The notes beneath the pieces are model-generated. The model worked only from the letters and a program-made list of their open reading frames with translations, had not been told where the DNA came from and did no database searches. 64,000 nucleotides of DNA from Botryllus schlosseri (Eukaryota): assembly GCA_051294905.1 (NCBI GenBank), contig CM119372.1:34660001-34724000 (forward strand), given 5' to 3'. The position numbers and the translations under genes are program-made. Shown here piece after piece: positions 8,999-56,800 of this stretch (position 1 is the first letter of the stretch; every line of letters starts with the position of its first letter).

Positions 8999-9031
8999 TT
9001 GAACATTCGTAGCAGCGAATACGGAGAAAAT

Positions 9032-18649: not shown

Positions 18650-19155
18650 TCAAAATGAAAATGGTTTTGTTACTCTAGGAAAAGCTAGATGACCAAGAGA
18701 AAATGTATTGTTACACTGGGTAAACGCCAGATCTCCAAAGGAAAATGATATTTTTAGTCAGGTAAACGACGACCCGCCAAGTGAAAATGGTTTGTTGCTC
18801 AAGGAAAAAATATATTTCCAAGCGAAAAAGGTTTGTTACCCAGGGAAAAATATATTTCCAAGTGAAAATGGTTTGTTGCTCAGGGAAAAAGGTTTGTTAC
18901 CCGGGGAAAAAATATATTTCCAAGTGAAAAAGGTTTGTTACCCAGAGTAAAAATATATTTCCAAGTGAAAAAGGTTTGTTACCCAGAGAAAAAATATATT
19001 TCCAACTGAAAAAGGTTTGTTACCCAGAGAAAAATAAATTACCAAAGGAAAAGGGGTTTGTTACACTGGGTAAACGATAAATCTCCAAAGGATAATGGTA
19101 TTTCTACTCGGGTTACGACCGACCTCCAGGTGAAAATGGTAATTTTACTTGGGTA
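18650..19155 (-). repeat. Mirror copy of the ~41-bp tandem array in the right arm of element 1
   Basis: ATATTTCCAAGTGAAAAAGGTTTGTTACCCAGAGAAAA units. Confidence 0.9.
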
Positions 19156-22100
19156 GGTATCGTATGTTTAGTGTCGTTGGTATTGTTAAACGTTGTCGCC
19201 GGTAGCTGTTGGTATACTATTACGAGTGTGAAAAGGATTTACACGGCCTGTGTAGAGTATCGTGATAGTAAACATATTTTTGGTGCGACGAACCAATATC
19301 GTTGTTAAAATTTTAATGCATTTCGATTACCGAGTTGTTGTACAATAGAGATGACTCTACATTAGACCGTGCTGTATACTTCGATTAAAACCACAAGACC
19401 ACATGTAAATCTATTCGCACAACTCGATGATGTTGATATAGTGTTACTAAAATTAATTATTACCTATTTACACAACATAAAATTAACAATTCATGTCGTA
19501 GCAGGTTTCTTGAACTCGTGCTTGATGAAACGAATGATGACAAGTAGGCTTTGAGTGAAAAATAATTATTTAGAGTAGTGACATTTTGTGACCAACGAAT
19601 GTAAATCGATCATGATATTACAATATATGCTTTCGTCAACATACCGACTTGGTGTAGAAACACTTTCAGGTTTTTTGAATAACTGGATTCTCGAGACTTG
19701 CTACTTGTACGATGTATCGTTGGTGGGCAAACTATAACGACCAATTTGTATGATAGTATGTTTTAGTTGTATTGTTGTGATGACTCACCGCTTTTCGTTA
19801 GCAAAGTAGGTCGATTTGTGTGTAAGATGTAAGCACCGTAACTAGAAAACATATGTACTCTGTTGTTGGAGTAGCTGATTTATTGTTATGACATGGACAT
19901 ATCCTGAAGCCTTGGTTTGTTGTCTTACGAAAGATGAGGCGACCTCGGTGTCGTAAATTGTGTTAACTAAACTCGTATGAATACCACAATTGTGCTGGAC
20001 TTACACACGGTATTCGCATACTGTACACATACAAACTTTTGTGTAAACAACGCTGGTGTTTCTGTTAATACTAGTTCTGTGTTGAACTACTTGATTATTA
20101 CGATACATGAACAACCATTCAGACAATAAAGTTCTTGAGGTATCGAAACAGTTTGAAAGCACCACCAATCATTGTACAGGTTTGTAGCATGAGCGAATAT
20201 TTTCGTGTAACATGAATATATTTCATATGTCTTCGGTAAGAAATGGGTTATGTGGGATAATAATTAGTATCGTAAAACTTGTTGTGTTTGATTGCATACT
20301 TTTTTAACATTGTTTGTTGTTGAAAGACGGGTGAGTTTACATTTAAATATAGTAAGCAGAGCAACTCAAGTAATAAATTTTACTCGTTTGAAAATCGACA
20401 ACGGAAAAAATACCGATGAATGGAGTAACAGTAATAATATGTGTGGTATATTATTTTTAGTGATATGCAACCAATCTTCTAAATCTTCTAATTTATCATG
20501 TCATAGTCGGTTGTTATGAATTCAAAACAAAAGTACTTCGATTATCAGGACAAAGGGAATTGAGATTAACGCAGTATTTCGAAGTGGTATGTTCAGCAAT
20601 CACTAAATGGCAAAAATATCAAACTGTGCATACAACTCGGTTAGTTAAACGATACATTTACAAGTTTACCGAAATCTTGATTTATTAATGACAGCTTGAT
20701 GATGTAAAGCTCAACCACTCCATTGTGTTTATTACAAAGTATTTGACACAGACAAAATATTGAACGAAGGCCCACCACTTGGTTTCATTACAAGGTGAGT
20801 GAAAATTGTTTTCTGTTGGTCAGGTATGATTTGCATTTAGTAAAACGATCTACGCCGATTAAGTGACGCTGTTTCATATCCGATGAGTGAGTGAAATTTC
20901 CTTATGGTTTGATTTAGTGGGTTAATTACCTGCGATTCAATCACATACAAGTAAGATCTTTTATGGGTTGAGTATTGTGACGACCTTTACTTTGACGGAT
21001 GACAATGGGGAAAATTTCGATTGCATTGTCGGTGTATGTGTTGGACCAGTGATTCTAGTACACCTAACTATAGGATACATTTGGCAAACATCGTACAAAT
21101 TGTTTCGTTGTGATGGTAACGACTTTCAGCGGTTTGGTTTCATGTCGGGAATTATTATTTGGAGGTTCAAAAACAATCAATACTACAAATGAACAACAAT
21201 GCAAAACACGTTAAGTGAATTACAGTGTAGCAAGTACTTCCTTGATATTACGATTGTTGTGTACCAGACATTTCTAACTGAATGCATCTAGCAAGCATAT
21301 TCCAATTTACTTTTGTAATGATCAAAGTATGTGAAATGGTGCGAACGGATTAAGCATTAATCAAGCGGCGGTATGTCAATTCACCTAGTGTGCTATCTTG
21401 ACACCGGATAATGTGCGAAAGTGTTTCAATTCTCACCGCAGATTACGATGATAAAGTATTGTACCGGTTATTGTTCAACAAAGGAAATTGGTGTTTCATC
21501 TTTAGTCTTGGTTAGTGGAGACAATTACATTTGTAAAATATTTCCTGATATCCACAATACGCTGCGTGGTTTTTATGAACACGGCTTAATCTTCCCAATC
21601 AAAACATTTCAGACATGTTAATCTAGTTTCACAAATCGATATGCTAATAACAATGTTTCTGAAAAGTTTGTTGGTATCGTAATAACCTTCAACACAACCC
21701 TGGTCTAATAATGTCATAATTTAATAATCAAGTCATGATCGACTATTACAAAATCTCATATGTCAAAATCAATGTGTCAATTCGTGAAAATTTTCAATAT
21801 AACACCCGCGTTTGATCGTAAGAATTCTCAACTACGTGTCCGGACATTCAAATTTCGTATACTCAAATGTAATATGTTAATCTCAAACCACACACCGAGT
21901 AGTATTTACTTTGGTTTATAAAATTTACCGAGTAGTAATTACTTTATCTTACAGCGTAGTAACGACTTTTACAGTTGAGCAAAGATGATTTGGTGGTATA
22001 TGACTACAACCGAACTTGTTATGGATTTTAGTTTGTAGCGATTGTATGTACTCGCGTAATCTTGTCTTCTTTCTGTACGGGTACTGTCTAGTTGGTCTGG

Positions 22101-22678
22101 TAAGTTACAAACGGATTTAGTTGACAAGGTTTACGGATTTACTTGACAAGGTTTTCATGATTGACTCTTTTGAGTATGGTAAGATGTTAAAATTTCGAGG
22201 TGTAATACTATTTCCATTAACTCAATTGCGACAAAAAATACCCAGATAACTTGTTCAAGGTTTCTTTTGTTTCAAATCAACATGTGAATAATCAGTTATT
22301 GTGACAAGTTGAAATATCGTACCGAAGTTGCGAGTGGAAACAGTACGCGATTGTGTAAGTGTGAAGACAGCGAGATGGTGATCGTGTGAATAAATTAATC
22401 TGAAACGCATTGGAGTGAAAGTTTACCCAGTCTGTCTGGCGATCCTACTTCAAATCGCGATTTGACAAAGTAGGTTGAAATATTCCGATTCAACTCATCG
22501 CATTGCAACTCGATCGTGTTATGTGCAAGCGGTTGTCAAGTGTGAAATATTTACAACAGGTGCGATTTCATTGATTGACTTGATTGTGTGTAGTAACACA
22601 TTAAAATATCGCGATAGCATAGTGAAATTATTTACTGAAACTCTATTTGACAAACGGAAAACTGTGAATAGAGTTGTA

Positions 22679-22945
22679 ATGTTACATTACTTGTTTCAAA
22701 TCAATGTGTGTATAATATCGAAACGGGACTGTGGGGAAGTTGCTAGTCATGTTTGTCAATCCTATTTCAATTCACACTATGTCAAAGTCAAAATATTTCA
22801 TTCTGGATTATCTGAATTTACCTTTAGTACATCCGCGAATGGATTCCGACACCGTACTATAACATTCTTAAAAATAAAGACTCGAGGATTTTCAATCAAC
22901 AATACTGGAATTTTTTTGATAATGTTAGAGTTGACAAATGATTAG
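22679..22945 (+). CDS. Candidate small orphan ORF (88 aa from ATG; mirrored at 11975-12241 on minus), with a frameshifted homolog in element 2
   Basis: MLHYLFQINVCIISKRDCGEVASHVCQSYFNSHYVKVKIFHSGLSEFTFS... Element 2 (~43459-43607) encodes MLHYLFQINVCIISKCEWVKVGRYACQS/YFNSDYVKVEIFHFGLSEFTFS with a 1-bp deletion. Confidence 0.25.
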   Translation: MLHYLFQINVCIISKRDCGEVASHVCQSYFNSHYVKVKIFHSGLSEFTFSTSANGFRHRTITFLKIKTRGFSINNTGIFLIMLELTND

Positions 22946-25457
22946 TCGCGTGTTTTTGTTAAGAGTTTGATTTCATGTTGATAAAGACAATAACTGTATA
23001 ATGCGCATACTTGTGATTCTTGATTCTTGTAGAGTTATAGTTGGTATTCATTCTATAGGTGTGAAAACAGCGGTGTGGAATGTGCGAATAATTCAATGTG
23101 GCTGAAAGTCGGCGTCAGCAATATTTAGGTTACAGTCGAATCAAAAGATCACGAAAATATTTCTCGAAATAATTAGAATTGTACCGAATTAACACATTCA
23201 GATACGAATCAACTTGAGCTGTGTAGTAAGTTTCATTTCAAGTTGACAAATTGACACGTTACTTGCATTTTCGCATGATTCTTATCATACAACTAAAGTC
23301 AACCGCGTTCCGAAGTGTCAAACATATAGCGACCACCAGAAAGTGTCAAATTGTTGGTTTACGAATCACCGTCTGCGCCGGCTCTGTGACAAACTTATTG
23401 CGGAAATATTACCTTGTGAGCGATCGGCATGTCTGTAACACCAAGTCGCTAAAGATGGTTATGTTCGAGACATTATCTTGTCAGCGATCGCAGGGTTTTA
23501 CAAATATTTCACACATCTTTGAAGTGTTGGTTTGTGAACGCGGTTATTGTCGGTATTCGAATCACCGGCTACGCCGGCTCTGTGGTAAACTAATTACTAA
23601 AGTAACACCATGCGACTGATTCCTAGATTTAGCAAACTATTTCGCACTGAATGGTCTAGTGTAATAATCGATAGTAGCACACGACTTCACGGAAACAATT
23701 CAGCGCGCAGGTCATTCGAAATATAGATCGCACGCACTGCTTAATCCTCACAACAAGCCACGTTTCCGTTTGTGCGGTTATTGTTGGTGACTCGTACATA
23801 TTCAACACCATGCGAGAGATGTCTGAAAGTGCGAATCACGACCGCACCCATAAGAACACATGGTAAATCACCGCAGAACCCGTAAGAATACATAACAGGC
23901 GAATCACCGCCACCGCCTATAGCAAAAAAGGCGAGTCACGACCACGAGTTTTCACGGCGAATCACGACCGCGGCCTATACCCGAAAAGGCGAATCACGAC
24001 CGCACCCATAAGAACACATGGCACCTCACCACCCCCGCCATAAGAGATAAGGGTCACCTCACCACCCCCGGTTTTCAGGCACCTCACCACCCCGCCCATA
24101 AGAGCCCCTGCCACATCACGAGCGATCATACTAACTACTTACGCCAAGTCAAGTCATTTTAGCAAAATGACTCGAGTCAAGTTAAGTCATTCGAAAAAGG
24201 TGACTCGAGTCTGACTCGAGTCAAGTCATGACTCGGGTCATCCCAACACTGGGAAGAACCAATATTATAGACAGACTTCATTCACAAAATTAAACGAACA
24301 GATGCATATAGAAACCAGATGTATATAGTAAGCCCTCCAGTAGTTGCATAGATTACTCTATGGTGGGCTCAAGATCAGTGTTCATTTGGACGGGAGGGGG
24401 CTGAAAAAATGTTGTTTCGGTCCTGCTTACAAAATACAAGCACAAAAATGCACCGGCCTAACATGATAGCGGCTCCTGATCCGGATCTTGACCATCTCTG
24501 TCGATAGGCAAATATTTGCTAGTGTGACGTCATATTGACAGACAATGTGTCCTAGCTCATTTTGAAATCCGCTAGTTGGTGCTAAAGAATGCCCGCGGAA
24601 TTTGCTTCACAAAAATATATAACCCTAACCTAATGATGTCTAAAACAGGTCGGAGGTTTATTGGCATTGGCTCAACACTATCAGAAATTTCATCTCGTAA
24701 TCAATAACTTCTACTCTTTACAAGTGGAAGTAGCTATTTTCAAGACCAGACGTTGGTTGTCAGCACCGAAGTACTTATAATTGTCCGGAGTACCTAAGTA
24801 AGTTTTGCCTTTCATACTACGTACTCGAGGGGTTTTGCCTTCAGACCGCTTTCACTTCTACTAAACAGTTTTGACGCAAAACCTTATATTATTTGCCCCT
24901 GGTAGTTTTGCAAAGTAGAAGGTATTTTTTGGATAGGTTTGTATACCTTTTTGAGTGCCACTATCGTATTAACTCAGTCAATCGATCTATTTGTAGTGTC
25001 ATCAGTCATTTTACGTTGTCGTGAAGATTCTCAAAAGTAGCCCAGTCTTCGGTTTAGTACTAAAACCTCGACCAAATGGATCAAAACTCACCCGAGTACT
25101 TTTCCAATCTTTCATTTGCTACTTCTAACTAGTAGTAGTACAGGGGTTGGCAACCCATGGCTCACGAGCCGCATGCGTGAAAGTACTTCTAACTGTACGC
25201 GCGTAGATCACAGTACGTATATTATTTCGTATCACACTGCATCTCACGACCATATGCATGGTCCGTGGTATGTATTTTTCAATTGCAAACCTATATGATA
25301 AAGCTTACCTGAGTATACACATCTATATATATATGCTTCAAATTTCACATGCGGTCTTCAAGTGTATGTTGTTTTGGCTTGCGAAACACGGACAAATCCG
25401 GTCATCTTTGTTTAAACATGTAGATACATAGGGTATTGATATTATCATGTTTTACAG

Positions 25458-34605: not shown

Positions 34606-34981
34606 CAATATGGATTCAGACGCATCCTAAATGTAGCTCCATTCATGGTCTGTTGACAACTAGCATACATATTCATTTACACCAGACCGCTCATCATTTG
34701 CAGGATTCATGTGCAGCTGACTTATACCAAAACCCACTTTTGTGCTAGGCTTTTATAGGACACTTATAACCGTCCGATCGTTGATCTAACTAACCGTCTG
34801 AAGTGGATGACTAGGCAGATTTGAGGGATATATGGCAACGAATGCATAGTACAATAAAACGGCAAACGGTTCAGGCCAGACATGTCTTACTCAAATTTAG
34901 TACACTCCACTGTATGTATTGACTTGCCTTGGCACACGAGAGAACCGGATCCACCAGGTTTCACAGCGGCGTGGACACATT

Positions 34982-37900
34982 AGTAGTATATATGATCGGT
35001 CGTGGTGTGCGCTTTTTTGCATGGGGTAGTATAGGCGGGGTGGTGAGCGGCTGGGAAAGCGGGGGTGGTGAGCGGCTCTTATTTCTTATGGCGGGGGTGG
35101 TGAGCGGCTATTGCGTCTTATGGCGGGGGTGGTGAGCGGCTCTTATTTCTTATGGCTGGGGTCGTGAGCGGCTGGAAAACCGGGGGTTGTGAGCGGCTTT
35201 TATGTCTTATGGCGGGGGTCGTGAGCGGCTCTTATTTCTTATGGGCGGGGTCGCAAGCGGCTGGGAAACCGGGGGTGGCAAGCGGCTTTTATGTCTTATG
35301 GCGGGGGGTGGCGAGCGGCTATTGTGTCTTGTGGTCGCACTGGCGAGCGGCTCTTATTTCTTATGGGCGCGGCGGCGAGCGGCTATTGCGTTTTATGGCG
35401 GGGGTGACAAGCGGCTATTACGTCTTATGGCATCTCTCGACCGGTGACCCTTTTCGGTATAGGGATCGCTCAACCGGTGTCTCGATCTTATGGCGGGGTC
35501 GCAAGCGGCTCTTATTTCTTATGGCCATTGTGTCTTATGGAGCCTCTCAACCGGTAACCCTTTTCGGTATAGGGATCGTTCGACCGGTGCCGCGAAAACT
35601 CGTCTTGAACCGGTGACCCTTTTCGGTATATGCATCTCTCGACCGGTGTTGAATATGTATCAAGTAAATAGTCATGTGAATGAATCTTTGTTAATGTGTA
35701 TATCGTGAAAACTCGTGGTCGTGACTCGCCTTTTTTACTATAGGTGGTGACGGTGATTCGCCCACCGTGTATTCTTACGGGATCTGTGGTGATTCGCCAT
35801 GTGTTCTTATGGGTGCGCTCGCATTTCGTACTTTCAGGTATAGGTATCTCTCGCATATCGTACTTTCGGGTATGGACATCCCTTAACAGGAAATTCACTA
35901 ATCCGCAGTGCATTGTGCGATTTTGAAAACCAGATCTTGGCGGTTGTATTTTGACCTGTGTGACCCACTAAATACGTCCGTTTTGGAAATTCGGAGCGCG
36001 CACTATCATATCGATTATTCCACTAATCCAGTCGGTGCTATTACATTCAGCAGTATTCGGTATTCAGCAGCGACACGAAAAGCGACCAACAAATAACCGC
36101 GCTCGTAAATTAACACTTCAAAAAGTGTAAAATAGATTGCAAATCCAGCGATCGCTGACAAGATAATGTCTCGGGCATAACCATTTTTAGTGACTTGGTG
36201 TTACAAACATACCGATCGCTCACGCGGTGAAATTTTAGTAATCAGTTTGTCACAGAACTTGATTTCGCTGGTAAGATTTAATAAATACCGACTAACAGAA
36301 CCATCAGTGTGGGTAACTTGAATAGCAACAAATTATCACTTATTTCCGCCCTAACCCTAATCCTTTGTGAGATTACCACATACTCAAATAGATGCGAAAT
36401 AATTGTAAAATCATACAATCTTTTTAGGAATATTACTTGACTTGACCAACTTTCGGCTCTGTTTTCGATTTCCACACAGTCGCTATAAGTTTCCACGCTT
36501 CTAGAATAGGATTGACTTTAGACACGTCATAAGAATCATGGTAATATTCAATCAATGTGTCAATTTACCAACTCGAAATCTCACTCGCGCTACAAGTGAA
36601 GCTGAATTGTTTCCGAATATGATAATTTACCACCGCTCAGCGCCAAACTGACTCTGTATAACAATATTACGCATGCGCGGTATTTCAGAATGGTATAATG
36701 TCATTATCAGCAAATATTTCACAAACTTAATCGTTTACACGAATCAAAGCTAAAGTTGAAACGACAATATCAAGGTTTGAAACCTTACAACTCGATCAGT
36801 GATTTTTTATTCAACTGTAAAATAAGTTAATATTCTGTAAGACACAACAATTATTGCTCGGGTAATGTGACATTGAGATTACCAAATTGTATATTGAGTA
36901 TACGAGATTTGAATGTTTGACTAGTGATAGACTGAAAAATATCTCGCAAGAGAATCCATGTGTTATAATGCAGGCTATCGTGATACAAACAAATTCAATA
37001 CGGTATACCTATTAACCAATCGGCCCCCAACCCGAGATTCGAGTGTTCGATCAGTGCTCGATAAAAATTATTTTCATGTATACCAACTCTTGCGTTGTGG
37101 TGAAGGGTGTTACGATATGAGCAAAGTTTTAATAAACACCATTATCAGCACCCTGATTGAGAAAAAACTTGATTCGTATGTATGAAAAGTGTTTGATTGG
37201 GAATTTATCCATTTCTTACAATCCCGCCACTGTAATGAGGACTGGTATTATATGATTATTAAATAATATTTCACAAACTCAAGCCACTGTTTTTGAGGAA
37301 TGGTATTATATGATTACTAAATAATATTTCACAAACTCAACCCTAATCGTAAGACTTGAGAGAAATCACGTATTCGCTTGATGATAACACGCATGCGACA
37401 AAAAACATCACCGCGATTTTGTAAACTGATCATACTAATCAGGGTATTTACCATCACGCTTCTAGAATAGGATTGACTACTGAAGGTAAATTCAGATAAT
37501 CCAAAATGAAATATCTCAACTTTGACATAGTCTGAATTGAAATAGATTGACAAGCATACCTACCAACTTTAACCCACTCACATTTCGAAATTATGCACAC
37601 ATTGATTTGAAACAAGTAATGTAACATTACAACTCTATTCCCGATCCAGCTTTCCGTTTGTCAATGAGACATTTTAACATCTTACCATACTCAAAAGAAT
37701 TATTCAAAACATTAACAAGTGTTAAAAATCTAGTTTCCACTTACTTGATTATATCAGTACAACTAGCAAACTTGAATTAATTCATCTGGTTGTATTCATA
37801 TGACCGATAATTTTTATCCCACTGTAAAGGTTGTTATACTATTTTACAAGACAAAGTAATTATTCCTCGATATATTTTGGAAGACAAAAGTAATTTCTAC

Positions 37901-39521
37901 TCGGTGTAGGTGGCTTGAGATTAACATACTATGTTTGAGTGTACGAGATTTGCAAGTCTGATCAACGTAGTTGGGAATTCGTTTCTTACAATCGAACGCA
38001 GGCGTTATATTAAGAATTATCATGATGTAAACATAAGGATTGACACATTGATTTGACATATGAGGTTTTGTAACGGTCTATCATGACTTAATTATTAAAT
38101 TATTCACGATAATTAGACCCGGTGTTGTGGTAAAGATTATTATGACAGCAACAAACTTTTCACTACCACGGTTATTACCATATTGAGTTATAAAACTATT
38201 CGTGTATGAAATGTTCTTGATTGGTAAATTATTCCACCTTGGTACAAATCACTCTGCGTATCGCGGATGTCAGAAAATATTTTACATATGTAATTGTTTC
38301 CAGTTACCGAGACTAAAGATGAAACAACAATTTCGTTTACTGATTAACAACCGGCGCAATACTTCATTGTCGGAATCTGCGACTAAGAACTGAAACACAT
38401 ACCCGCATTACCCTGGTGTCAAGATGTGTGAATTGACATACCGCCGCTTGATTAATGCTTAATCCGTTCGCACCATTTCCCACACACTTTGATCATTACA
38501 AAAACAAATTGGAATATGTTTTCTAGACACCTCCTATTCAACTAGGCTTGAGTAATACAGAAAACTCTTAACATTAATAAAATCGAAACATATGCTTCAC
38601 TGAATACTAAAAAATGTGGTTGCATTGATGTTCAATGTTTTATAGTAGTGATCATAAATTATCATTTGAATCTTATAAAATTGTAATCATAAAACCACAC
38701 CACAGGAGGTCATCAAAAGCATATTGCAGGATGTTTGCTCTATGCATCCTAGTTTGGTAAACTGGAATTATTTGTAGAACGCACACCATCAAAGAAAAAC
38801 ACGCAACCACTAACACGATTCCTAGTTGAGATTGAACTCCTAGTCATTTTCTACGCGTGCACAACTATAGGGTCGTTCTTCTGGATACAAGACCTAAAAT
38901 TTTTGAGTTGTCAAAACGACACACATATTTGAAAATATCACTTACTTGGTTAAAGCTAATGCATCGACGGTAACAACCGACACGGATCATTACTATTTAT
39001 TTCATAATCATTTCAACAAAATTACACACACTGTACATTGTTGCTTTTTGCGTGACACGAGAATAAATCAGATCACAACGAACTTAATGTGTATTTTACT
39101 CACTCGTCGCATTATGAATATTGACCAACATCGTTTCAACGTCGTGCATCGTTTTGCCGAATACGAAATATGTTAGTGTAGCAAATGTTTTAGCGTAACA
39201 GAAAACTATTTTCACTTTCTTGACTTTTGAAAACAATACACGCACATTTTGTTTGTGTCAACTATAGTTACTTGTAAGATACGACTGATAATCCCCGCGA
39301 CTCATACAAAAGTATGAAAGATATTTACATCACGCAAAGTACTCGACCTTACACGATATTTTTGGTACTACGAAACTCAAGAATGATTGCCTACGCTTTC
39401 AAAGTAAAGAATGACGAAAAGTGCTGAGTCATCATATGATTGCCGGCACAACAAAACGACTAGTAGATGGAGCCGTAAAAAAAATGTTCCTAACCCTTAG
39501 CACACCAGTGACAAATCGTGC
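34982..39521 (+). repeat. Left inverted arm of element 2 (4540 bp)
   Basis: Reverse complement of 41569-45893. Mirror ORF sums are 81086-81090. About 211 bp extra in the subterminal repeats. Confidence 0.95.
35030..35650 (+). repeat. GC-rich subterminal repeat array of element 2
   Basis: ~30-bp units TCTTATGGCGGGG(G)T(C/G)GTGAGCGGCT..., followed by ACCGGTGACCCTTTTCGGTATAGGGATCG units. Confidence 0.9.
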
Positions 39522-40199
39522 AATGGATATGTTTTGTCGAGTTGTTGTTGAGCGTCAAGTCTTCGTGTTGAACCGTACATTTGAACAGCGCAACCACGAT
39601 CCAATTGTAACCACGAATCTATTTTCATTTTGACACAAACTGTCGCGTACAGAAAAATAAATTTTCTTTCCTCAACACATACTTGTATCCAATCACTTTC
39701 GTCAAACACGCAACTCAATAAAATTGTTTACTTTCTACAACATCAAAACCCCGATTTAGTTGTACATATTGTTGAGAAATATTTTTATTAATCAAAACCA
39801 TCGATTTCTGTTCATGGTGTTAGTGTGTGCATGTCATACCTGTGGGCCCCTCCGTATTAAAATGGACACGACACGACTGAATGTAAGGGGATAGAAGTCT
39901 ATCGCATCGATTTACATGTGGTCTTCGCTACGGTTTCAAAAAACGAATCATCTATTTTGCATTGGTCGAGACCGAGCGAGTCAGTTACATGTATTCACGA
40001 TAATGATTTTGCTTGTCATATGCGAATGATAGGGTTGCTACTCCGACAAATCAAATCAACATACAACAATCTTCTGACGATCATAATAGCAATTTCATTT
40101 TCTGCCCCTTCGTAACTGTATATGCACGAAAAGTATATTGTACAACTCGGCAACTACGTTTAACAAGACCAATCACACTACCATCGTTGAACACAAGAT

Positions 40200-40895
40200 A
40201 CCTACCCAAGTCAAAATATCATACTGGTTTGGACAACTGATGTTTACCTGTGTAAAATTATCATTTTCACTTGGAGGTCAACCGTTACCTGACTAAAATA
40301 CCATTGTCCTTTGGCGATTTATCGTTTACCCCGTGTAACAAACCTTTTTCCCTTGGAAATCTATTTTTTCTCTGGGTAACAAACCTTTTTCACTTGGAAA
40401 TCTATTTTTTTCTCTGGGTAACAAACCTTTTTCACTTGGAAATATATTTTTTCTCTGGGTAACAAACCTTTTTCACTTGGAAATATATTTTTTCCCTGAA
40501 CAACAAACCATTTTCACTTGGAAATAAACTTTTACCTAGAGTAACTAACCATTTTCTTTTGGAAATATATTTCCCCCTAGGTAACAAACCCTTTTCGTTT
40601 GGAAAACTATCATTTACCTGAGTACCAATACCGTTTTCACTTGGAAATCTATCTTTTCCCTGGGTAACAATACCATTTTCGTTTGGAAATCAATCGTTAC
40701 CTAGAGTAACAACCCATTTTGGTCTGGAAATATATTTTTCCCCTGAATAATAAACCATTTTCGTTTGGAAATATATTTTTTCTCTGAGTAACAACACACT
40801 TTTCGTTTGGAAATATATTTTTTCTCTGAGTAACAACATAATTTTCGTTTGGAGATGCGATGTTTACCCAAGTAAAAATACCATTTGAGTTTTGA
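40200..40895 (+). repeat. ~41-bp tandem array in the spacer of element 2 (same unit as in the element 1 arms)
   Basis: GGTAACAAACCTTTTTCACTTGGAAATATATTTTTTCTCTG-type units, roughly 16 copies. Confidence 0.9.
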
Positions 40896-41568
40896 AATCT
40901 GACAACCACACGCATCAATTTGGTATTTGCTGTATTGGTGAAAGTTTGAAATAGATTACAACGAACAGTGACGAAAATATACACGACAATCGGTTTCAGA
41001 GTATACTCACGTCGGTAGCAACACATCTATATCATCGGTTAACCACATGAAATAACAATATAATCTTGTATATCGAAATGTATGCTTTGGAAAATGACGA
41101 ATATTGTGTGTGTGTGTATGTGTCCGGGCTCGTACTTTAGTTTTTGCACAGAGTCTATACATCTGAATAAAACACCACCTCGACTTTGGTACCTGGTTCG
41201 TACATGGATAACACTACTTGTGATTTTTATCACACGTTTACTATATTGTGTCACTCTTTATTGGTCAATACATACCCCACCGTTCAGTCTGAAATCGAAA
41301 ACCCGAGAAAGTATTAACCGGATCCGGATATCAACTCTGAATCAAAAAACCAATGAAACATGTTACACCCTGTGTTTCCATGAAAAAAACAAGACATTAC
41401 ACATCAAGTAAACTTCACGATTGTTCACAAGTATTCGCGTAAACGAGGTGTGTGACATTACATACATCATGGATAACATCATGGCCGACATTACAAGCAT
41501 CATGGATGACAAATTCATGTTCTCAAGTCTCATACATGAACCGACTCTGTACGTTCAATGTGGGGGTA

Positions 41569-44500
41569 GCACGATTTGTCACTGGTGTGCTAAGGGTTAG
41601 GAACATTTTTATTACGGCTCCAGCTACTAGTCGTTTTGTTGTGCCGGCAATCATATGATGACTCAGCACTTTTCGTCATTCTTTACTTTGAAAGCGTAGG
41701 CAATCATTCTTGAGTTTCGCAGTACCAAAAATATCGTGTAAGGTCGAGTACTTTGCGTGATGTAAATATCTTTCATACTTTTGTATGAGTCGCGGGGATT
41801 ATCAGTCGTATCTTACAAGTAACTATAGTTGACACAAACAAAATGTGCGTGTATTGTTTTCAAAAGTCAAGAAAGTGAAAATAGTTTTCTGTTACGCTAA
41901 AACATTTGCTACACTAACATATTTCGTATTCGGCAAAACGATGCACGACGTTGAAACGATGTTGGTCAATATCCATAATGCGACGAGTGAGTAAAATACA
42001 CATTAAGTTCGTTGTGATCTGATTTATTCTCGTGTCACGCAAAAAGCAACAATGTACAGTGTGTGTAATTTTGTTGAAATGATTATGAAATAAATAGTAA
42101 TGATCCGTGTCGGTTGTTACCGTCGATGCATTAGCTTTAACCAAGTAAGTGATATTTTCAAATATGTGTGTCGTTTTGACAACTCAAAAATTTTAGGTCT
42201 TGTATCCAGAAAAACGACCCTATAGTTGTGCACGCGTAGAAAATGACTAGGATTTCAATCTCAACTAGGAATCGTGTTAGTGGTTGCGTGTTTTTCTTTG
42301 ATGGTGTGCGTTCTACAAATAATTCCAGTTTACCAAACTAGGATGCATAGAGCAAACATCCTGCAATATGCTTTTGATGACCTCCTGTGGTGTGGTTTTA
42401 TGATTACAATTTTATAAGATTCAAATGATAATTTATGATCACTACTATAAAACATTGAACATCAATGCAACCACATTTTTTAGTATTCAGTGAAGCATAT
42501 GTTTCGATTTTATTAATGTTAGGAGTTTTCTGTATTACTCAAGCCTAGTTGAATAGGAGGTGTCTAGAAAACATATTCCAATTTGTTTTTGTAATGATCA
42601 AAGTGTGTGGGAAATGGTGCGAACGGATTAAGCATTAATCAAGCGGCGGTATGTCAATTCACACATCTTGACACCAGGGTAATGCGGGTATGTGTTTCAG
42701 TTCTTAGTCGCAGATTCCGACAATGAAGTATTGCGCCGGTTGTTAATCAGTAAACGAAATTGTTGTTTCATCTTTAGTCTCGGTAACTGGAAACAATTAC
42801 ATTTGTAAAATATTTTCTGACATCCGCGATACGCAGAGTGATTTGTACCAAGGTGGAATAATTTACCAATCAAGAACATTTCATACACGAATAGTTTTAT
42901 AACTCAATATGGTAATAACCGTGGTAGTGAAAAGTTGCTGTCATAATAATCTTTACCACAACACCGGGTCTAATTATCGTGAATAATTTAATAATTAAGT
43001 CATGATAGACCGTTACAAAACCTCATATGTCAAATCAATGTGTCAATCCTTATGTTTACATCATGATAATTCTTAATATAACGCCTGCGTTCGATTGTAA
43101 GAAACGAATTCCCAACTACGTTGATCAGACTTGCAAATCTCGTACACTCAAACATAGTATGTTAATCTCAAGCCACCTACACCGAGTAGAAATTACTTTT
43201 GTCTTCCAAAATATATCGAGGAATAATTACTTTGTCTTGTAAAATAGTATAACAACCTTTACAGTGGGATAAAAATTATCGGTCATATGAATACAACCAG
43301 ATGAATTAATTCAAGTTTGCTAGTTGTACTGATATAATCAAGTAAGTGGAAACTAGATTTTTAACACTTGTTAATGTTGTGAATAATTCTTTTGAGTATG
43401 GTAAGATGTTAAAATGTCTCTTTGACAAACGGAAAGCTGGATCGGGAATAGAGTTGTAATGTTACATTACTTGTTTCAAATCAATGTGTGCATAATTTCG
43501 AAATGTGAGTGGGTTAAAGTTGGTAGGTATGCTTGTCAATCTATTTCAATTCAGACTATGTCAAAGTTGAGATATTTCATTTTGGATTATCTGAATTTAC
43601 CTTCAGTAGTCAATCCTATTCTAGAAGCGTGATGGTAAATACCCTGATTAGTATGATCAGTTTACAAAATCGCGGTGATGTTTTTTGTCGCATGCGTGTT
43701 ATCATCAAGCGAATACGTGATTTCTCTCAAGTCTTACGATTAGGGTTGAGTTTGTGAAATATTATTTAGTAATCATATAATACCATTCCTCAAAAACAGT
43801 GGCTTGAGTTTGTGAAATATTATTTAATAATCATATAATACCAGTCCTCATTACAGTGGCGGGATTGTGAGAAATGGATAAATTCCCAATCAAACACTTT
43901 TCATACATACGAATCAAGTTTTTTCTCAATCAGGGTGCTGATAATGGTGTTTATTAAAACTTTGCTCATATCGTAACACCCTTCACCACAACGCAAGAGT
44001 TGGTATACATGAAAATAATTTTTATCGAGCACTGATCGAACACTCGAATCTCGGGTTGGGGGCCGATTGGTTAATAGGTATACCGTATTGAATTTGTTTG
44101 TATCACGATAGCCTGCATTATATCACATGGATTCTCTTGCGAGATATTTTTCAGTCTATCACTAGTCAAACATTCAAATCTCGTATACTCAATATACAAT
44201 TTGGTTATCTCAATGTCACATTACCCGAGCAATAATTGTTGTGTCTTACAGAATATTAACTTATTTTACAGTTGAAAAAAAAATCACTGATCGAGTTGTA
44301 AGGTTTCAAACCTTGATATTGTCGTTTCAACTTTAGCTTTGATTCGTGTAAACGATTAAGTTTGTGAAATATTTGCTGATAATGACATTATACCATTCTG
44401 AAATACCGCGCATGCGTAATATTGTTATACAGAGTCAGTTTGGCGCTGAGCGGTGGTAAATTATCATATTCGGAAACAATTCAGCTTCACTTGTAGCGCG

Positions 44501-45893
44501 AGTGAGATTTCGAGTTGGTAAATTGACACATTGATTGAATATTACCATGATTCTTATGACGTGTCTAAAGTCAATCCTATTCTAGAAGCGTGGAAACTTA
44601 TAGCGACTGTGTGGAAATCGAAAACAGAGCCGAAAGTTGGTCAAGTCAAGTAATATTCCTAAAAAGATTGTATGATTTTACAATTATTTCGCATCTATTT
44701 GAGTATGTGGTAATCTCACAAAGGATTAGGGTTAGGGCGGAAATAAGTGATAATTTGTTGCTATTCAAGTTACCCACACTGATGGTTCTGTTAGTCGGTA
44801 TTTATTAAATCTTACCAGCGAAATCAAGTTCTGTGACAAACTGATTACTAAAATTTCACCGCGTGAGCGATCGGTATGTTTGTAACACCAAGTCACTAAA
44901 AATGGTTATGCCCGAGACATTATCTTGTCAGCGATCGCTGGATTTGCAATCTATTTTACACTTTTTGAAGTGTTAATTTACGAGCGCGGTTATTTGTTGG
45001 TCGCTTTTCGTGTCGCTGCTGAATACCGAATACTGCTGAATGTAATAGCACCGACTGGATTAGTGGAATAATCGATATGATAGTGCGCGCTCCGAATTTC
45101 CAAAACGGACGTATTTAGTGGGTCACACAGGTCAAAATACAACCGCCAACATCTGGTTTTCAAAATCGCACAATGCACTGCGGATTAGTGAATTTCCTGT
45201 TAAGCGATGTCCATACCCGAAAGTACGATATGCGAGAGATACCTATACCTGAAAGTACGACATGCGAGCGCACCCATAAGAACACATGGCGAATCACCAC
45301 AGATCCCGTAAGAATACACGGTGGGCGAATCACCGTCACCACCTATAGTAAAAAAGGCGAGTCACGACCACGAGTTTTCACGATATACACATTAACAAAG
45401 ATTCATTCACATGACTATTTACTTGATACATATTCAACACCGGTCGAGAGATTCATATACCGAAAAGGGTCACCGGTTCAAGACGAGTTTTCGCGGCACC
45501 GGTCGAACGATCCCTATACCGAAAAGGGTTACCGGTTGAGAGGCTCCATAAGACACAATGGCCATAAGAAATAAGAGCCGCTTGCGACCCCGCCACAAGA
45601 TCGAGGCACCGGTTGAGCGATCCCTATACCGAACAGGGTCACCGGTCGAGAGATGCCATAAGACGTAATAGCCGCTTGTCATCCCCACCATAAGACGCAA
45701 TAGCCGCTTGCCACCGCCGCCATAAGAAATAAGAGCCGCTCACCACCCCCGCCATAAGACGCAATAGCCGCTCACCACCCCCGCCATAAGAAATAAGAGC
45801 CGCTCACAACCCCCGCTTTCCCAGCCGCTCACCACCCCGCCTATACTACCCCATGCAAAAAAGCGCACACCACGACCGATCATATATACTACT
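41569..45893 (-). repeat. Right inverted arm of element 2 (4325 bp)
   Basis: Begins gcacgatttgtcactggtgtgc, the reverse complement of the sequence ending at 39521. Confidence 0.95.
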
Positions 45894-46651
45894 CACATTC
45901 CTTCTCCATAGTCGGAGTGGCCCACTGGTTAAAAGATAATCACTCATAAGCAATGTTCCCTCTAATTTTTCAGGAGTCTTCGTGCACTCACCGACTAAGT
46001 GCGCGGTTCCTTGGACAACATTGCGTAACATTTTGAGATCCGAAGCAGAAGAAAATGTGTTGACTAAAAAAAGTTCATCACTTTGACGAGACAGCTAGGG
46101 TTGTTCAAAATTGGGCTGCCGAAGTGATTTTTCGGCCCGGATTTGCGGATGGCCGGTATAGCTGCTGTAAGGTTTTTTCTTGCGGCACGCATTGTATTCG
46201 TAGTGGCCAGAGTAGCCTGCGTCTGGTGGCAGTAGGCAATGAACAAGGTAGCACGAGAAGGTGCTTGGTTCGACTCCGAAACGCTTCTTTTCTCGATATT
46301 GTCAAAGAGATGAATATTATTAGAGTTGGCGTGGTCGGTTAAACCCACGGCCTTCGGCGCGAAAGACTGTAAACGACTCTCGGCGGTAGCACGTTTATCT
46401 GGACAATGCAATTTTACCTCGACTCAGCAGACTCACTACCATAAAATCTCATGGATGCCATGATGAAGTTAATTAATTACGATCAAAACCCTCTAAATGT
46501 CACTTTCTAGCACCAAATAATTGCAAAAAACGGTTGCATACGTTACATTTTGGCTTCATTTCAACTTTGAAAGTTCACCGGTCCGCCAGACATTTTTTGA
46601 AATTTTACCGGTCCGCGAGGTGAAAAAGGTTGAGAACCACTGGATAGATTA

Positions 46652-49600
46652 CACTGGTCAACACATATTTTTAGGCGGAGAAAGTAAGAGTGGGTTTGGC
46701 GGTTCTGAAGGGCACTGATTCCGAATATGATCGTAGTTTTTTTCCAATTGCCTCTATTTTTGGAGATAATCCAAGGGGCTATTTTGACTAAAATCTCATA
46801 TTTTCGCTGTATGGGCTGGATAAAAATCGGCTCGGTCGTGCTATAAAGTTCAGAAATTCAATCTACTTGTTATTTTGACACGCTGAAGACTGTTTTAAAT
46901 CAAAATACATCAACAGAATTATATCATAATGACAGACTTCCACGGATATCATATACATAAATAAACTTCAATCATGAATATACGTATTTACTTAAATACT
47001 CAAATAACGATGCAATAATTGAATCAGTTTCATGTCAACCACCTATTTTGATTTCAAAATAATCAGTTCGAACATAATATTATTAACTTATCTCAAAGCA
47101 AAATTGGTTCTTCTACTATTTTCGGTTGTAAGCAATTTAGTGCTGTTTTTCGAAAGGTTACAGCAATAATCTGCCATAATATGTTCGTCGCATCTGCACT
47201 GATATATTTCTTTTGATGTATTGATGGAACCTTCCCCCTTTCTATTCTCTCTAATCAACAATATTATCAGAAAATATATCACGATGACTGAACAGGAAGT
47301 GAGATTTAATGCTTATGTTTTCTCCAAGGTTTCCAATTACAAATAACAATTCTCGGACCAACTGTTTGTAGTTGGGTGCTTTGTGATGTTCCAAAAAGTT
47401 TTATTTACTACATCCTAGAAGGGATTCCATGCAGTGAGCCCCTTTCTTAATATGAAATTGTAATCCGAATCTGAGGTCCATCAAAGATTCCAGATTTAAG
47501 CTTCTCGTTTGATATGGATAGGCCTACTAGATATACCCACTTTGTTGGCTTTTCGGAAAATAATCCATTTACAAGTGAAAAGAGATGAGCCGCATATGAG
47601 TATTTTAGTTAAGCTTTCAAGGGACAAACTTGAAAGCTTTATACTCCTCTTTCATCTTGGTAGAATGACCAATTGGTATAGGAGAAAATATATTTCCATT
47701 GTGCAAAAGTACAATTTTTAGGCTTGACAAACTGCTAATTGAACAAACAAAGTTCTCGCAATAGGTCACGTTAATATTGATGGAATAAGCGAGAACGACA
47801 CGAGTGTTCATTAGGGTTGTCCATAATTTGGAAAATCTTACAAATCCTCGGTTGTAATGTCTTATTCGATAGATTATTGATAAAAAACGACACTGAGCCT
47901 GAAAGAAGCTCACAGAAAGGCCGTTAAGATTTCGTGCAAAGCGTTTGAAAGTAGCTGCCGAAGAATGGGCGTGCCACCGACCATAGAACGGCGAGAAGAC
48001 TAGTAATCAAGAAACCACGGCTCTTGATTGGATAATCGGCTATGCTTCAATGACCACGTCAGCAGCAGCTTGCTGATTAGGTGAACAAGGAGTCTGCTAC
48101 TGGCGGCGATTCTGCAAGCGCATTGTATGTAGGTTGACAGATCATGATTTAGGATTGATTAAGGGTATGTTGAGGTACGAAATACATAATGAACAAACAA
48201 CAGCTGCTTCACAAAAACGTCTAAAGCATGACTGCTATATTGTGAAAGAAACCGCCGTAGCCTATATGCCTTGTTTTCAACGAGGGAAAGCATAGGCGCT
48301 TATGCAAGTGGCGACGGATTCCTAGTTTCAGAAATAATATATCATTATTGAATACAACGATAAAGCTTAACAATGACCCTATAGTTTGTGTGATCTCATT
48401 GCGCTCAGGTTGTAGTACATAGTTGAAGTTTTGAAAGCTCTAAGGGTCGGCTGAATCAGCGGGTTATGCTTGGCACTTGCCAGATGCTTGCATCAAACTG
48501 TATTCACTTGCAAGTGTTGTCAGAGTCCTTGATGATGACGCAGAAAAGAGGCGTAAAAGTAAGCACATAATATGCTGGATATGATATGTCAAATTCCTTA
48601 ATAATCGCGCAGAAAAGGGGTATAAAGGTAAACACAGACAATGCTGCATAGTGCATAGTATCCAACATAGTTTGCATATCATATCAAGCAGGGCCTGTGC
48701 TTGCATTTAAACCTCGTTTCTGCGACATCATTAGGGACTTTGAAAACATTTACAAGTGAATTCAATTTGCTGCAAACATCTGATGAGTGCTAAGCCTAAC
48801 CGTCTGATTCAGCCGATCGCTAGAGCATTCAAAACTTCAACTATGTACTGCAACCTGAGCCCAATAAGATCACCTAACTTATAGTGTCATTGTTAAGCTT
48901 TATCTTTGTATTCAATAATGATATATTATTTCTGAAACTAGGAATCCATTGCCACTTGCATAAGCGCCAATGCTTTCCCTCGTTGAAAACAAGGCATATA
49001 GGCTACAGCGGTTTCCTTCACAATGAAGCGGTCATGCTTTAGACGTTTTTGTGAAGCAGCTGTTGTTTGTACATCATGTATTTCGTACCTCAAGATACCT
49101 TGAATCAATCCTAAATCATGATCTGTCAACCTACATACAATGCGCTTTCAGAATCGCCGCCAGTAGCAGACTCCTTGTTCACCTAATCAGCAAGCTGCTG
49201 CTGACGAGGTCATTGAAGCATAGCCGATTATCCAATCAAGAGCCGTGGTTTCTTGATTACTAGTCTTCTCGCCGTTCTATGGTCGGTGGCACGCCCATTC
49301 TTCGGCAGCTACTTTCAAACGCTTTGCACGAAATCTTAACGGCCTTTCTGTGAGCTTCTTTCAGGCTCAGTGTCGTTTTTTATCAATAATCTATCGAATA
49401 AGACATTACAACCGAGGATTTGTAAGATTTTCCAAATTATGGACAACCCTAGACTGTTCATCATAGTCAATTATCTATTTATCCGCAGTATAAAAGTAAA
49501 AAAAAACGAGATATACTTCCTACTAAGTGAAATATACAAGAGTAAATACGGTGATTTTAAGCTTTTTTAGGGGTAATATTATCTTCTTTTCTAAGGCCAA

Positions 49601-52963: not shown

Positions 52964-53808
52964 CAGTGTTGGGATGACTCAAGTCCACTTTGTAAAAATG
53001 ACTTGACTTGACTCGGCGCTTCAGAAATGAGGATTGACTCATGACTCGGAGCAAAATTCACTAGTCAATTTCAAGTCATCAAGTAAACAGTGTCAATTAA
53101 ATCATCCTATCTTATCTATGTTCGGGTTGTCCGCGTTACGTCGATGTCACTTGTGAGAGCAATCAGTCATTCACTGATTGTACTAATCACTGACGCTCCA
53201 TTATTACATCACAAATAAATCGACCAATAACTAAACGTGTTCACTGCTTGCGTTGTAGTAGTAGTTGTAGATTAATCTAATAGCAACGTACCTCTGTTTC
53301 TTAGACGGCTCAGTGCTTACATTGCACAGCGCTCACCTTTACCAACACTCTTATATGATTTAAATCGAACGAATATAGTTTATGCCTTAATATTCTCACG
53401 GATGTGTAGGTAGAGTAGATGGATAGTGCCGGTTGTAGCAAATAAATTTGTTCAACTTCTCGAGGCTTCATATTCGATCCTCTATATTGGCTAATAAAAC
53501 CAGACTGTTGCATGTGGACAGTTACTCGCGTGTTTTATTAGCAGTTCTACGTGTGTGTGCGCGATGCAACACCTTTTTGCATGTATATTTAACTTTATAT
53601 TCGCTATTTGATTCAAGATACATGGCCAATTAATCTATCCATCACCAGTTAGCAAAATGTAATGACTTTGCATCACCACTGATACTGCGAAAATTCAATT
53701 TGACTTGACTTGACTCGAGTCACCTCCAAAAACGAGTGACTTGACTCGACTCGAGTCAAAATGTGCAATGACTCGTGACTCGAAGGTAGTGAATTGATCC
53801 CAACATGG
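52964..53808 (-). mobile_element. Uninterrupted copy of the (GAGTC)n hAT-type MITE
   Basis: CAGTGTTGGGATGACTC...GATCCCAACATGG. Perfect TSD CATTCATC at 52956-52963 and 53809-53816. Carries the empty site corresponding to the element 1 insertion. Confidence 0.85.
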
Positions 53809-56800
53809 CATTCATCCAAGGATACCGAACCGTCTTTTGTAAATCACGACGACCTTGGTGGTATGTGACAGCCGTTTACCATCTACTTCGACTTAATTAT
53901 CGATTAAACTCTGCGCGCCAAATTTTGCTCAATTCCAACACATAGAAGCTAAGCCAGGCGCTGAGCCCTCCACGCGGTACAAATGCGACCAGTTGAGGAT
54001 AAACTTGCTTCCCGTGTAGAAATGTGAATTGAAAGGAGTTTGAAATTGAGTGATCGATTATTGGCACAAAAGTTTTGGAGACATTGGTTCCACCGCTAAA
54101 TCTTAGCAAGTGTAACGAGAGGATCAAAAATTTATGCGAGCTGGGCCGACAATCTTGGCAAGATTAAATAATTACTAGAAATTTTTTTTAATTATATCAC
54201 TTAACAGTTTGGGAACCACAGGGATAGTGTTCTGAATATGAATGGTAGCGGTCCTGGAGGTAGCAACGATTCACTTACTGTCAAATAATATGATAAAGAA
54301 CGCAGCTGTCACACAGACGTCAGATTCATAAACAAAATTACCTTGCAAGCTCCAATAACAGTTAGAAATCGTCCCACTTTACTTGTAATTGTTCGACTCT
54401 CGGCCGTAGGATGAGTCACTTTGCATGCTCCTTCAAAGAGAATATAAGTAGATCAGGGGCGGCATTACAAAACAATGCGGCAAATCGGAATATCCGCCAG
54501 CGGTAACAATCTCTCTGGAATGTGATCACCACATAATGTCAAAATTGGTATTTCAAAACATTTCAGACTCAGCACGGAGTTGCGCACTTGTTTGTGATTT
54601 CGCCATGTCGGCAATCTCAGTAGAAGATGACTTCAAACGAGGGCTTACAAGTCCGTGTGGTCAGCAACAATTTGCAATTTAGCTGCAATGATCTTTCACA
54701 AGAATGGAAATCAAAATACCCTAACACTGTAAAAATGCTCTCGAAGACATCGTTATTGAGGGTTTTGTAATCGCGATTGTAATATTAGTTACAACTTACG
54801 TTCAGTAGTCTTGTCACGAGTAAAATTTTGAACTTTTTTTTTTGTCCATTTTTGCTTGTTTGACCTTTCAGGCTGAACAATTGCCATAAATCCTTTGCAG
54901 CTATGCTTGTCATATTTCTGACCGTTGAGGCCAATTGTTCACCCCGAAGTCCATTCAAAGCAGATACCTGTAGTACAAAATACAATACATAGTGGTGTGT
55001 GACAGAATGAAAAATCACTAGACCAGTTCAGTTTATTATTAAATTTCAGGTACTCAATTTTGCCCAGCACAAACAATGTTACCATAGTGTCCTATATGGT
55101 GTGGACAGTAGGACACTGCATTTGGGTTAGGCTACGTCATACTTTCCATTTGAACAAAAGCAACTTTACGGCCATTTTGACCGGCTTTTCGAGTGCAAAA
55201 TCCGATAAAACGTGTGTCAATGGAAAGCTGCTGATATAAGAATCACGTAAATATAAATTTTATTCTGTTCATGCCGGCCCTGGCATCCCTAAAATCAGCC
55301 AGCCGAAAAATCAGTAATGGGTTTTAAAATAATGGCGCGGGGTTTCGATATTTTTCGAATTCACTAATATAGCATCAATTCATTATGGTTAAGTACATCC
55401 GTAAATGACGATTATACAATCTTCTCGTGCTGACGATTATATGCGCATTATCAGCTTGACGACGAGTCCGGAAGTGGTGTTAATTAGCGACTCCCTGATC
55501 TGTCGTGAACAAATAAATACCATCGCATATCAATGCGTCGAACAACTAAATACCGTACGCGCGCTGATCTACGTTCATTTGAAATGACCGTACTGATGCT
55601 AATATTCAGTCGCAAATCAATAAGTCGTATTTTCACTGTTGCGCGAAGCTAATTAGCAAGAGGCGTGTTGCCAAATAGCGAGATTCATCTGTGCACAAGG
55701 CAACGCGACGCCCCACCACCCCGCAACTCGTCGCCTATGGCTGTACAGTACATATATCATTCAATAGAACACCGGCATCTCAATTCGCCCAAAACGACGA
55801 CACATGTTTACTAGATGTTCGGTATAACTAGTATTATTTCAAATGTGCGACTAGAATTGGAACTACTCAATTTTGAAAATCCGCAACTAGAACTACAACT
55901 ACCCAAGAAACCGTTAGTTGGTTGACTTTCAACTAACTAAATGGTTAGTTTGTAAAAGTCACTAAATACGGAAATGACTCGACTCGAGTCAATCTGTGTA
56001 TTGACTCAACTTGGACTCGAGCCATTGCCCATGACTCGAACGAACCAAGTCGGGACAAAGATGGCCAGGACCGATATTTCATCGTAATTTCGAAGAATAT
56101 TAAAGTAACCTCCCTATTGGGATTTCGTCTATTTGTAGTAGTACTTGAAAATGCGATCAGAAACTGCTAAAAGTGAGGAAAACTACTATATTATAAATGC
56201 GAACCATTCAATATCGCCAGACTGAGTTATAAAAAGCGAGTTTAACAAGATTTTAGCTGGAAACTGAGCAGTCAACACATTGACTTGGACTCGGACTCGA
56301 GTCATAATACCATGACTCGGACTCGACTCTCTGATCTATGACTTTGACTTGACTCGGTTGCGAGTTGAAAATGACTCGACTTGACTCGAGTCGAATCTGC
56401 GTAATATGACAATGGCAACAAAGAAGGTTTGAACTAAATGAAAAGAGTGATTTATTGTGATTTTAATTGTCACGACATACTTTGCTACATTAGCTTTATG
56501 TTGAACATGGATTACGCATGCGAGCTTGTGAGGGACGTAGGCTGCGTAACCGCGGTATATTTCCGTTCCGGCCCAGTTTATAAGCTTACGGTTTAATTTT
56601 CAAAAGTAGGTTTTGTGTTTTGAATTTCAAGAAATGGACACGCGGGCCGCTCAGAATGGTTTGCGGGCCGCACTTTGGCCAGGTCTGAGTTAGATAGTCC
56701 GGCAAAGTTTGCTCTAATCAACAAAATCATACCAGTTCAGACTTCTTGCAATCGCAGTTAATCAAGTTCGTTTCCAGTTGTTCCAGATGAGATAAGGTTT

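Follow-up and report, generated by a model that had tools for sequence, protein, structure and literature searches.

A lopsided Polinton-ended palindrome of Botryllus schlosseri and the probable loss of its centre

Why do two related palindromic elements of Botryllus schlosseri, located in the same stretch of DNA, fold back at different points? The question was raised by a 64-kb window (the whole stretch of DNA analyzed, 64,000 nucleotides with a GC content of 39% and stop-free frames that never exceed 191 aa), in which self-comparison revealed two giant inverted repeats, here called elements 1 and 2 (Table 1). The initial annotation described the single-copy centre of element 2, its apparent spacer, as arm sequence in element 1, and put forward two origins for it: either the arms arise by copy-back at variable positions during replication, or the native arm is long and element 2 has lost its centre together with the inner part of its right arm. 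The analysis reported here favors the second origin, which fits best, and gives no support to the first as the origin of the family's arms.

Table 1. Features of the two palindromic elements, in window coordinates.
Feature	Position	Strand	Remarks
Element 1, whole	10781-24139		Delimited by self-comparison
Element 1, target-site duplication copies	10775-10780 / 24140-24145
Element 1, left arm	10781-17006	+	6,226 bp
Element 1, 41-bp array	15856-16276; mirror 18644-19064
Element 1, single-copy loop	17007-17913	+	907 bp; without match elsewhere in the window
Conserved 91-aa ORF	17534-17809	+	In the loop of element 1; family not recognized; element 2 lacks it
Element 1, right arm	17914-24139	-	Against left arm: 11 substitutions, 0 gaps
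Element 2, whole	34982-45893
Element 2, target-site duplication, 6 bp	Left 34976-34981; right 45894-45899
Element 2, left arm, still-paired part	34982-39521	+	4,540 bp; begins with (AGT)2
Element 2, subterminal GC-rich tandem array, 32-bp unit	35037-35431	+	Exceeds its mirror (45655-45816) by 211 bp
Arm segment private to the subfamily of element 2	38798-39413	+	Mirrored at about 41677-42292; lacks a good counterpart in element 1
Element 2, "spacer"	39522-41568	+	2,047 bp; probably the inner part of the original left arm, its mirror partner gone
Element 2, 41-bp tandem array in spacer	About 40203-40900	+	Row 40288-40853, 13.7 copies; overlapping row to 40898
Conserved inner-arm block with three motifs	40905-41466	+	Against 16280-16881
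Final 102 bp before the junction	41467-41568	+	Family sequence to at least 41562 (contigs)
Putative rearrangement junction	41568-41569		Long left arm abuts the right arm, which begins at the mirror of 39521
Element 2, right arm	41569-45893	-	4,325 bp; terminates in (ACT)2

Both elements carry the end motif (AGT)2//(ACT)2 and a perfect 6-bp target duplication, and the unoccupied target sites of both are visible in paralogous host repeats within the window; for element 2 this repeat runs from 1778-2059 onward and holds a single copy of the hexamer. Arm-to-arm identity is 99.8% in element 1 and 99.4% in element 2, whose arms differ from each other by 26 substitutions and 3 indels, two of them falling in the subterminal GC array and amounting to 211 bp altogether.

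Several further observations concern the surroundings and the inner structure of these elements. The host repeat around element 1 (9832-10780, 24140-24240) is rich in short palindromic tandem units, and its paralogue with an empty insertion site lies at 53015-53818. Within the arm of element 2, one of the segments 36832-37241 and 37788-38527 is a diverged partial second copy of the other; the block matches 12996-13369 of element 1 at 61%, and the pair, which both arms contain, goes back to an old duplication within the arm. Elsewhere in the window, there are two smaller palindromic elements (8378-9001, 625 bp, 95%; 47812-49451, 1,640 bp, 90%), the ends of which start with TAGGGTTG and which are unrelated to the Polinton-ended pair, as well as a telomere-like degenerate TTAGGG run in an internal location (62565-62660).

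We then focused on the spacer of element 2. Nearly all of its 2,047 bp proved to be collinear with the inner arm of element 1, as the initial annotation had proposed. The three motifs that had been reported from both arms of element 1 each have exactly three occurrences in the window, one in the spacer (40948, 41316 and 41436) and one per arm of element 1 (16323/18597, 16726/18194 and 16850/18070), and the 41-bp array is likewise common to the spacer and both arms, as seen in tandem-repeat rows and by BLASTN. The alignment on which the proposal stood or fell, that of 40200-41470 with 15765-16880, is strongly significant: BLASTN joined 40330-41466 to 15767-16881 at 69% over 1,202 columns (E 2e-160), with an equal match to the mirror at 19153-18039. 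Since the block that follows the array scores 516 on its own (40905-41466 against 16280-16881, with identity at 444 of 528 columns and no more than 45 in any of 200 shuffles), the homology is independent of the 41-bp array. Compared with the right arm of element 2 itself, the same block scored 49, below the shuffle maximum of 56, and is thus single-copy in element 2, with no second copy in that arm. The likeness also includes the first 680 bp of the spacer (39522-40200 against 15216-15765, score 105, maximum of 51 in 1,000 shuffles), and the anchors are collinear from the left end of each element through 16881, which corresponds to 41466.

Past this last shared anchor, 102 bp lead to the junction in element 2 and 125 bp to the arm end in element 1, placing the junction within about 25 bp of the arm-end position. 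The earlier claim that the spacer ends near the point where the arm of element 1 ends was thus borne out by position, but not base for base, as the last 102 bp (41467-41568) showed no significant alignment to element 1 (p about 0.16) and the last 69 bp matched its loop in neither orientation (p 0.47 and 0.95). With breaks distributed uniformly, and assuming a shared arm end, 0.7-1.7% would be expected within 25 bp of the arm end and 2.7-6.7% within 100 bp, figures that were calculated post hoc for one case. A break so near the arm end suggests that the arm/loop boundary of the parent was located here and directed the break. Between elements 1 and 2, blocks of about 70% identity alternate with unrelated segments, which indicates different subfamilies, element 1 serving only as a proxy for the parent of element 2. 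On the retained side of the junction in element 2 no microhomology is visible, although a short overlap with the parental bases beyond 41568 may have existed, and no hairpin at the four inner junctions is stronger than in shuffled sequences (z -1.2 to 0.7).

The arms of element 1 end in a short interrupted palindrome (16996-17006, 17912-17925) with 5-6-bp arms, which does not rise above shuffles. The innermost motif block (16850-16881, mirror 18039-18070, and 41436-41466 in element 2) is directed into the loop from both arms; speculatively, it might serve as a binding site or promoter through which the loop gene is controlled from either flank. In addition, an ATG-started frame of ~33 codons (41470-41568, noted by eye) reads a few codons past the junction into the right arm.

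The loop of element 1 is unlikely to be an arbitrary leftover, because its 91-aa ORF is conserved, at constant length, in five other protein clusters. These hold nine proteins of 90-98 aa with 62-84% identity, the longest contigs of which measure 671, 922, 965, 1,064, 1,064, 1,075, 1,117, 1,192 and 2,005 bp; seven of the nine (922-1,192 bp) would correspond to the single-copy loop assembled between collapsed arms. The gene is present in element 1, yet tblastn with six relatives plus a profile found no trace of it in element 2. A search of 1.84 billion representatives with the loop protein returned nothing beyond the known clusters except two false matches, P0009 and P0010, which are WD40 proteins and were rejected as homologues; there was no Pfam match, and the Atlas recognition score was below threshold. 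Among five structural models, one reached a pLDDT of 75 and was all-beta, the other four remaining at 35-37; Foldseek gave no match at E<=0.001, and a small-heat-shock fold was not accepted, its matches being weak (E 0.007, TM about 0.4). An alignment of the loop protein against viral contigs confirmed none of 71 candidate loci. Three of 102 metagenome loci were confirmed, but rejected for their 60% GC and for lack of any DNA match to the window; one of them, L001, resembles a WD40 repeat in translation. For the second loop ORF (17052-17276) no homologue was found.

To which class do the elements belong? Polintons/Mavericks have the end motif (AGT)2//(ACT)2 or (AG)3//(CT)3, to which both elements conform. 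Nevertheless, neither pPolB nor integrase, ATPase, protease or capsid genes were detected in either element (none of 17 selected frames reached the Pfam cut-off), the longest stop-free frame inside either being 170 aa, and the arms of 4.5 and 6.2 kb lie outside the TIR range of about 0.1-1.5 kb of autonomous Polintons/Mavericks. A Cys_knot assignment for 11304-11690, below the cut-off, was not accepted. The elements, which do not pass as autonomous Polintons, would nevertheless work like a defective, helper-dependent genome. They are multi-copy and recently inserted, judging by contig depth and by arms that are 99.4-99.8% identical, in keeping with a non-autonomous Polinton derivative. Galileo/Foldback-type cut-and-paste transposons produce a target duplication of 7-10 bp; here, the duplication has 6 bp, and no transposase of the P-element or Mutator type was detected. 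Exact scans with the 26-mer motif gave 0 matches in viral contigs and 0 in metagenome contigs, and 30 viral loci retrieved with the end-motif pattern were attributed to chance, none of the 30 having a BLASTN match to the window.

In the accessible parts of the published sources, vertebrate Mavericks have (AGT)2//(ACT)2-type ends, 6-bp duplications, intact elements of 12.7-24.6 kb and TIRs of 46-1,447 bp (PMC8097293), and butterfly polintons have gene-bearing arms of about 2 kb, the longest Polinton arms that we found reported there (bioRxiv 10.1101/2025.02.07.637071). The elements described here have the same ends and a perfect 6-bp duplication, and their size of 11-13 kb is near the 12.7-24.6 kb of the vertebrate elements (PMC8097293), but core genes are undetected and the arms measure 4.5-6.2 kb, as opposed to 46-1,447 bp in vertebrates and about 2 kb in butterflies. 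Gene-poor Polinton-ended palindromes with 6-kb arms were not found in the literature covered, partly as excerpts, which comprised sources other than the founding Polinton papers and the Repbase reports. Long-TIR non-autonomous Polintons have been entered in Repbase. Copy-back or snap-back defective viral genomes, according to the text available, are also helper-dependent, with one end duplicated and a single-copy middle, but belong mainly to negative-strand RNA viruses (PMC13506859), whereas the present elements are integrated and inherited and have an apparently conserved centre.

Two other systems are informative for the lopsided shape itself, again as far as the available text of the sources goes. 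Galileo of Drosophila mojavensis resembles element 2 in its long, internally repetitive TIRs, in a tandem-unit number that differs between arms and in one-sided TIR loss; in the shortest TIRs, one end has lost TIR sequence and the remainder "is not repeated any more" (PMC3573991). It differs in being a cut-and-paste transposon of the P-element superfamily with TIRs of 18-1,250 bp (PMC3573991); here the arms are five times longer, the ends are of the Polinton type and the loop contains a conserved gene. In a 15.4-kb mouse palindrome, symmetry-breaking deletions make up 93% of 118 rearrangements (PMC8701086); the similarities are a deletion through the centre, the size and a former arm left as spacer, but the mouse palindrome is perfect and its deletions are mostly small (PMC8701086), compared with a probable ~0.9-kb loop and ~3 kb lost here. 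Because one-sided loss is known from both Galileo and mouse palindromes, the lopsided copy itself is an ordinary type of event; it is the family that is less ordinary, by its arm length.

Public contigs over the region 40905-43700 were compared in 4 runs of 24, from 3 samples (X1, X2, X15 and X16 are among the run labels), and the assembly may itself derive from X1 and X2, in which single-copy sequence has a depth of about 10 and 50, respectively. Where contigs match the arm of element 2 at 98-99% identity, they reach depths of 1,333-1,594 in X2, about 30x single-copy depth, and 733-930 in X15. This high depth argues for a multi-copy subfamily that is present in another sample as well. Deep bins flank the junction on both sides, which makes the spacer family DNA up to its end. 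Moreover, record 2 of X1, at single-copy depth and 88% alike, aligns over 41428-41562 and runs on with 88 unlike letters, and thus shows that there is a family copy without this junction. No contig among the pieces listed (32 of 24,523) bridges the junction, an absence that proves nothing, and neither a strand-changing joint nor a loose end falls at 41568/41569 among 15 of 32 joints and 24 of 1,056 loose ends listed. A "from_end" value of 53-54 at 41623 is equally consistent with a contig end at the junction and with one at 41676, and the mirror of the subfamily-specific arm segment is accompanied by low-depth bins (41845-42408) and by loose ends at 42293.

Within the spacer, the letter of element 2 itself has a depth of 1,201 (X2) and 816 (X15) at 40939 and of 1,537 (X2) at 41289, near arm level, which hints weakly at relatives carrying the region twice. 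At 40990, 41009, 41063, 41275, 41298, 41387 and 41488 this depth is only 0-320 in X2, and at 41289 it is 0 in X15 and X16; near-arm values were hence obtained at two of the nine distinct spacer positions used (41491 was left out), and summed depth, as the tool itself cautions, does not measure copy number. In the environmental metagenome runs X5, X7, X9, X11 and X12, 33-40% of the sampled words of the arm and loop of element 1 were present, probably as host DNA in the samples; seawater and other-organism runs contained 29-47% of the words.

We favor, with a probability of about 70%, the reading in which element 2 is a centre-deleted copy from a long-armed, helper-dependent, Polinton-ended family, the parent having had ~14 kb and ~6.6-kb arms and having lost ~3 kb on one side, because the spacer is collinear with the arm of element 1 nearly throughout, the loop ORF is missing from element 2 and the junction lies near the arm-end position. 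The normal form of this family would have two arms of 6.2-6.6 kb and a loop of about 0.9-1.1 kb with one small conserved gene, and both elements would be non-autonomous, borrowing polymerase and integrase from an autonomous Polinton; the shape of the parent and the helper dependence are what we infer from the observed features. The parent of element 2, of about 14 kb, would have retained its left arm essentially whole (6,587 bp, or 6.59 kb, to about 41568), and a single event would have taken out the gene-bearing loop along with 2.05 kb from the inner side of the right arm, with about 3 kb lost at 41568/41569. The inner left arm, now unpartnered, would then mimic a spacer.

This event may have been one of host repair, in which a chromosomal stem-loop would be processed and then end-joined, or the work of a strand-displacing polymerase that would switch template at the stem/loop boundary of a folded single strand; we give the two roughly even odds. 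Deletion and a single template switch, if the template is already palindromic, yield identical sequences. A folded single-strand "racket" intermediate has been proposed for Polinton replication, although, according to the accessible text of that source, it has never been observed and rests on inference (PMC4196379). In a more specific and tentative version, to which we give about one chance in four, the junction would be a fossil template switch, left when a protein-primed polymerase copying the folded single-stranded element had traversed all 6.6 kb of the stem, came to a halt at the stem/loop boundary and resumed synthesis 2 kb farther along the displaced arm. Against loss of the centre in general, it can be said that the contigs listed revealed no close sibling of element 2 in which the centre is intact, that the final 102 bp do not align significantly to element 1, that the hint from own-letter depth fails at seven of the nine spacer positions, and that most deletions of the mouse palindrome are small and located at a perfect centre, whereas here 3 kb spanning a 0.9-kb loop would have been lost.

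It is also conceivable, if improbable, that the loss is older, and that element 2 belongs to a sub-lineage that has spread since then by repeated replication and insertion of the 10.9-kb form lacking the loop gene. Such a history is suggested by the intact ends and target duplication of element 2 and by the lineage-specific variants shared by both arms; for some of these variants, the letter of element 2 itself has a depth of 73-134 in X1, compared with about 10 for single-copy sequence, which may mean several close copies. However, overlapping contigs inflate depth, and the pieces listed from the four runs and three samples include no contig that bridges the junction.

The shared variants bear likewise on the other origin put forward in the initial annotation, copy-back at variable positions. 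In this view, the arms would be made anew at freely variable points on a parent that was not itself palindromic, each of the two elements being an independent fold-back. From the best 40 of 417 rows of variant positions, those up to 42676 gave a selected set of 19 (41623-42676). Of these 19 listed positions, 4 are changes confined to the right arm, where the family has the left-arm letter, and 15 have the same letter in both arms; at 11 of these 15 at least 89% of the X2 depth has another letter, while at 41712, 41948, 42002 and 42189 the majority of the X1 and X2 depth matches element 2. Variants that are rare in the family and yet occur in both arms argue that one arm was copied from the other, as copy-back would do at these 11 of 19 positions, and copy-back would also explain arms that are 99.8% and 99.4% identical. 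It yields an arm-spacer-arm structure with a single-copy middle collinear with the left end, as in element 2; a one-sided deletion gives the same, and copy-back from a linear parent and loss from a long-armed parent are indistinguishable by shape alone. Nevertheless, a folded intermediate with repair, or gene conversion, homogenizes the arms without shifting the arm end and with no new boundary, so that high arm identity is no evidence for fresh copy-back. Moreover, copy-back leaves unexplained why the switch-out point of element 2 coincides with the arm end of element 1, offers no reason for diverged copies to keep the same 91-aa gene on loop-sized contigs, and has to account for arms in which no recognizable remnant of a Polinton gene was detected (0 of 17 frames at the Pfam cut-off). 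As for the many break points among copies that it predicts, the comparison comprises two elements, and the 15 of 32 joints listed include no strand-changing one. Altogether, we regard copy-back as a doubtful origin, at about one chance in ten.

An assembly error in a difficult 14-kb palindrome is the least probable explanation, for even though no contig crosses the junction among the pieces listed and palindromes are hard for some long-read platforms (PMC8701086, in the text available), the two sides of the junction have no visible common repeat to invite a false overlap, the arms differ at 26 positions and the family backs the left-arm letter at 4 of 4 listed right-arm differences, as expected of two real arms, and element 1, a longer palindrome 11 kb away, was assembled whole.

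Overall, loss of the centre from a long-armed parent means that ordinary one-sided damage most likely accounts for the difference in fold-back point, which is then no evidence of birth by variable copy-back. The comparison also helps to define the family, as the long arms and the gene-bearing loop look inherited, with the arms kept alike. Under the fossil-switch reading, lopsided copies across the family would break at the arm/loop boundary on one side and at variable positions on the other, and some of them would have spread after loss of the loop gene. If the junction is indeed a fossil switch, then, together with the variants shared by the arms, it would be a genomic footprint of the Polinton "racket" replication intermediate, and breakpoints clustering at the arm/loop boundary, if found, would allow the folded single-strand model of Polinton replication to be tested statistically.
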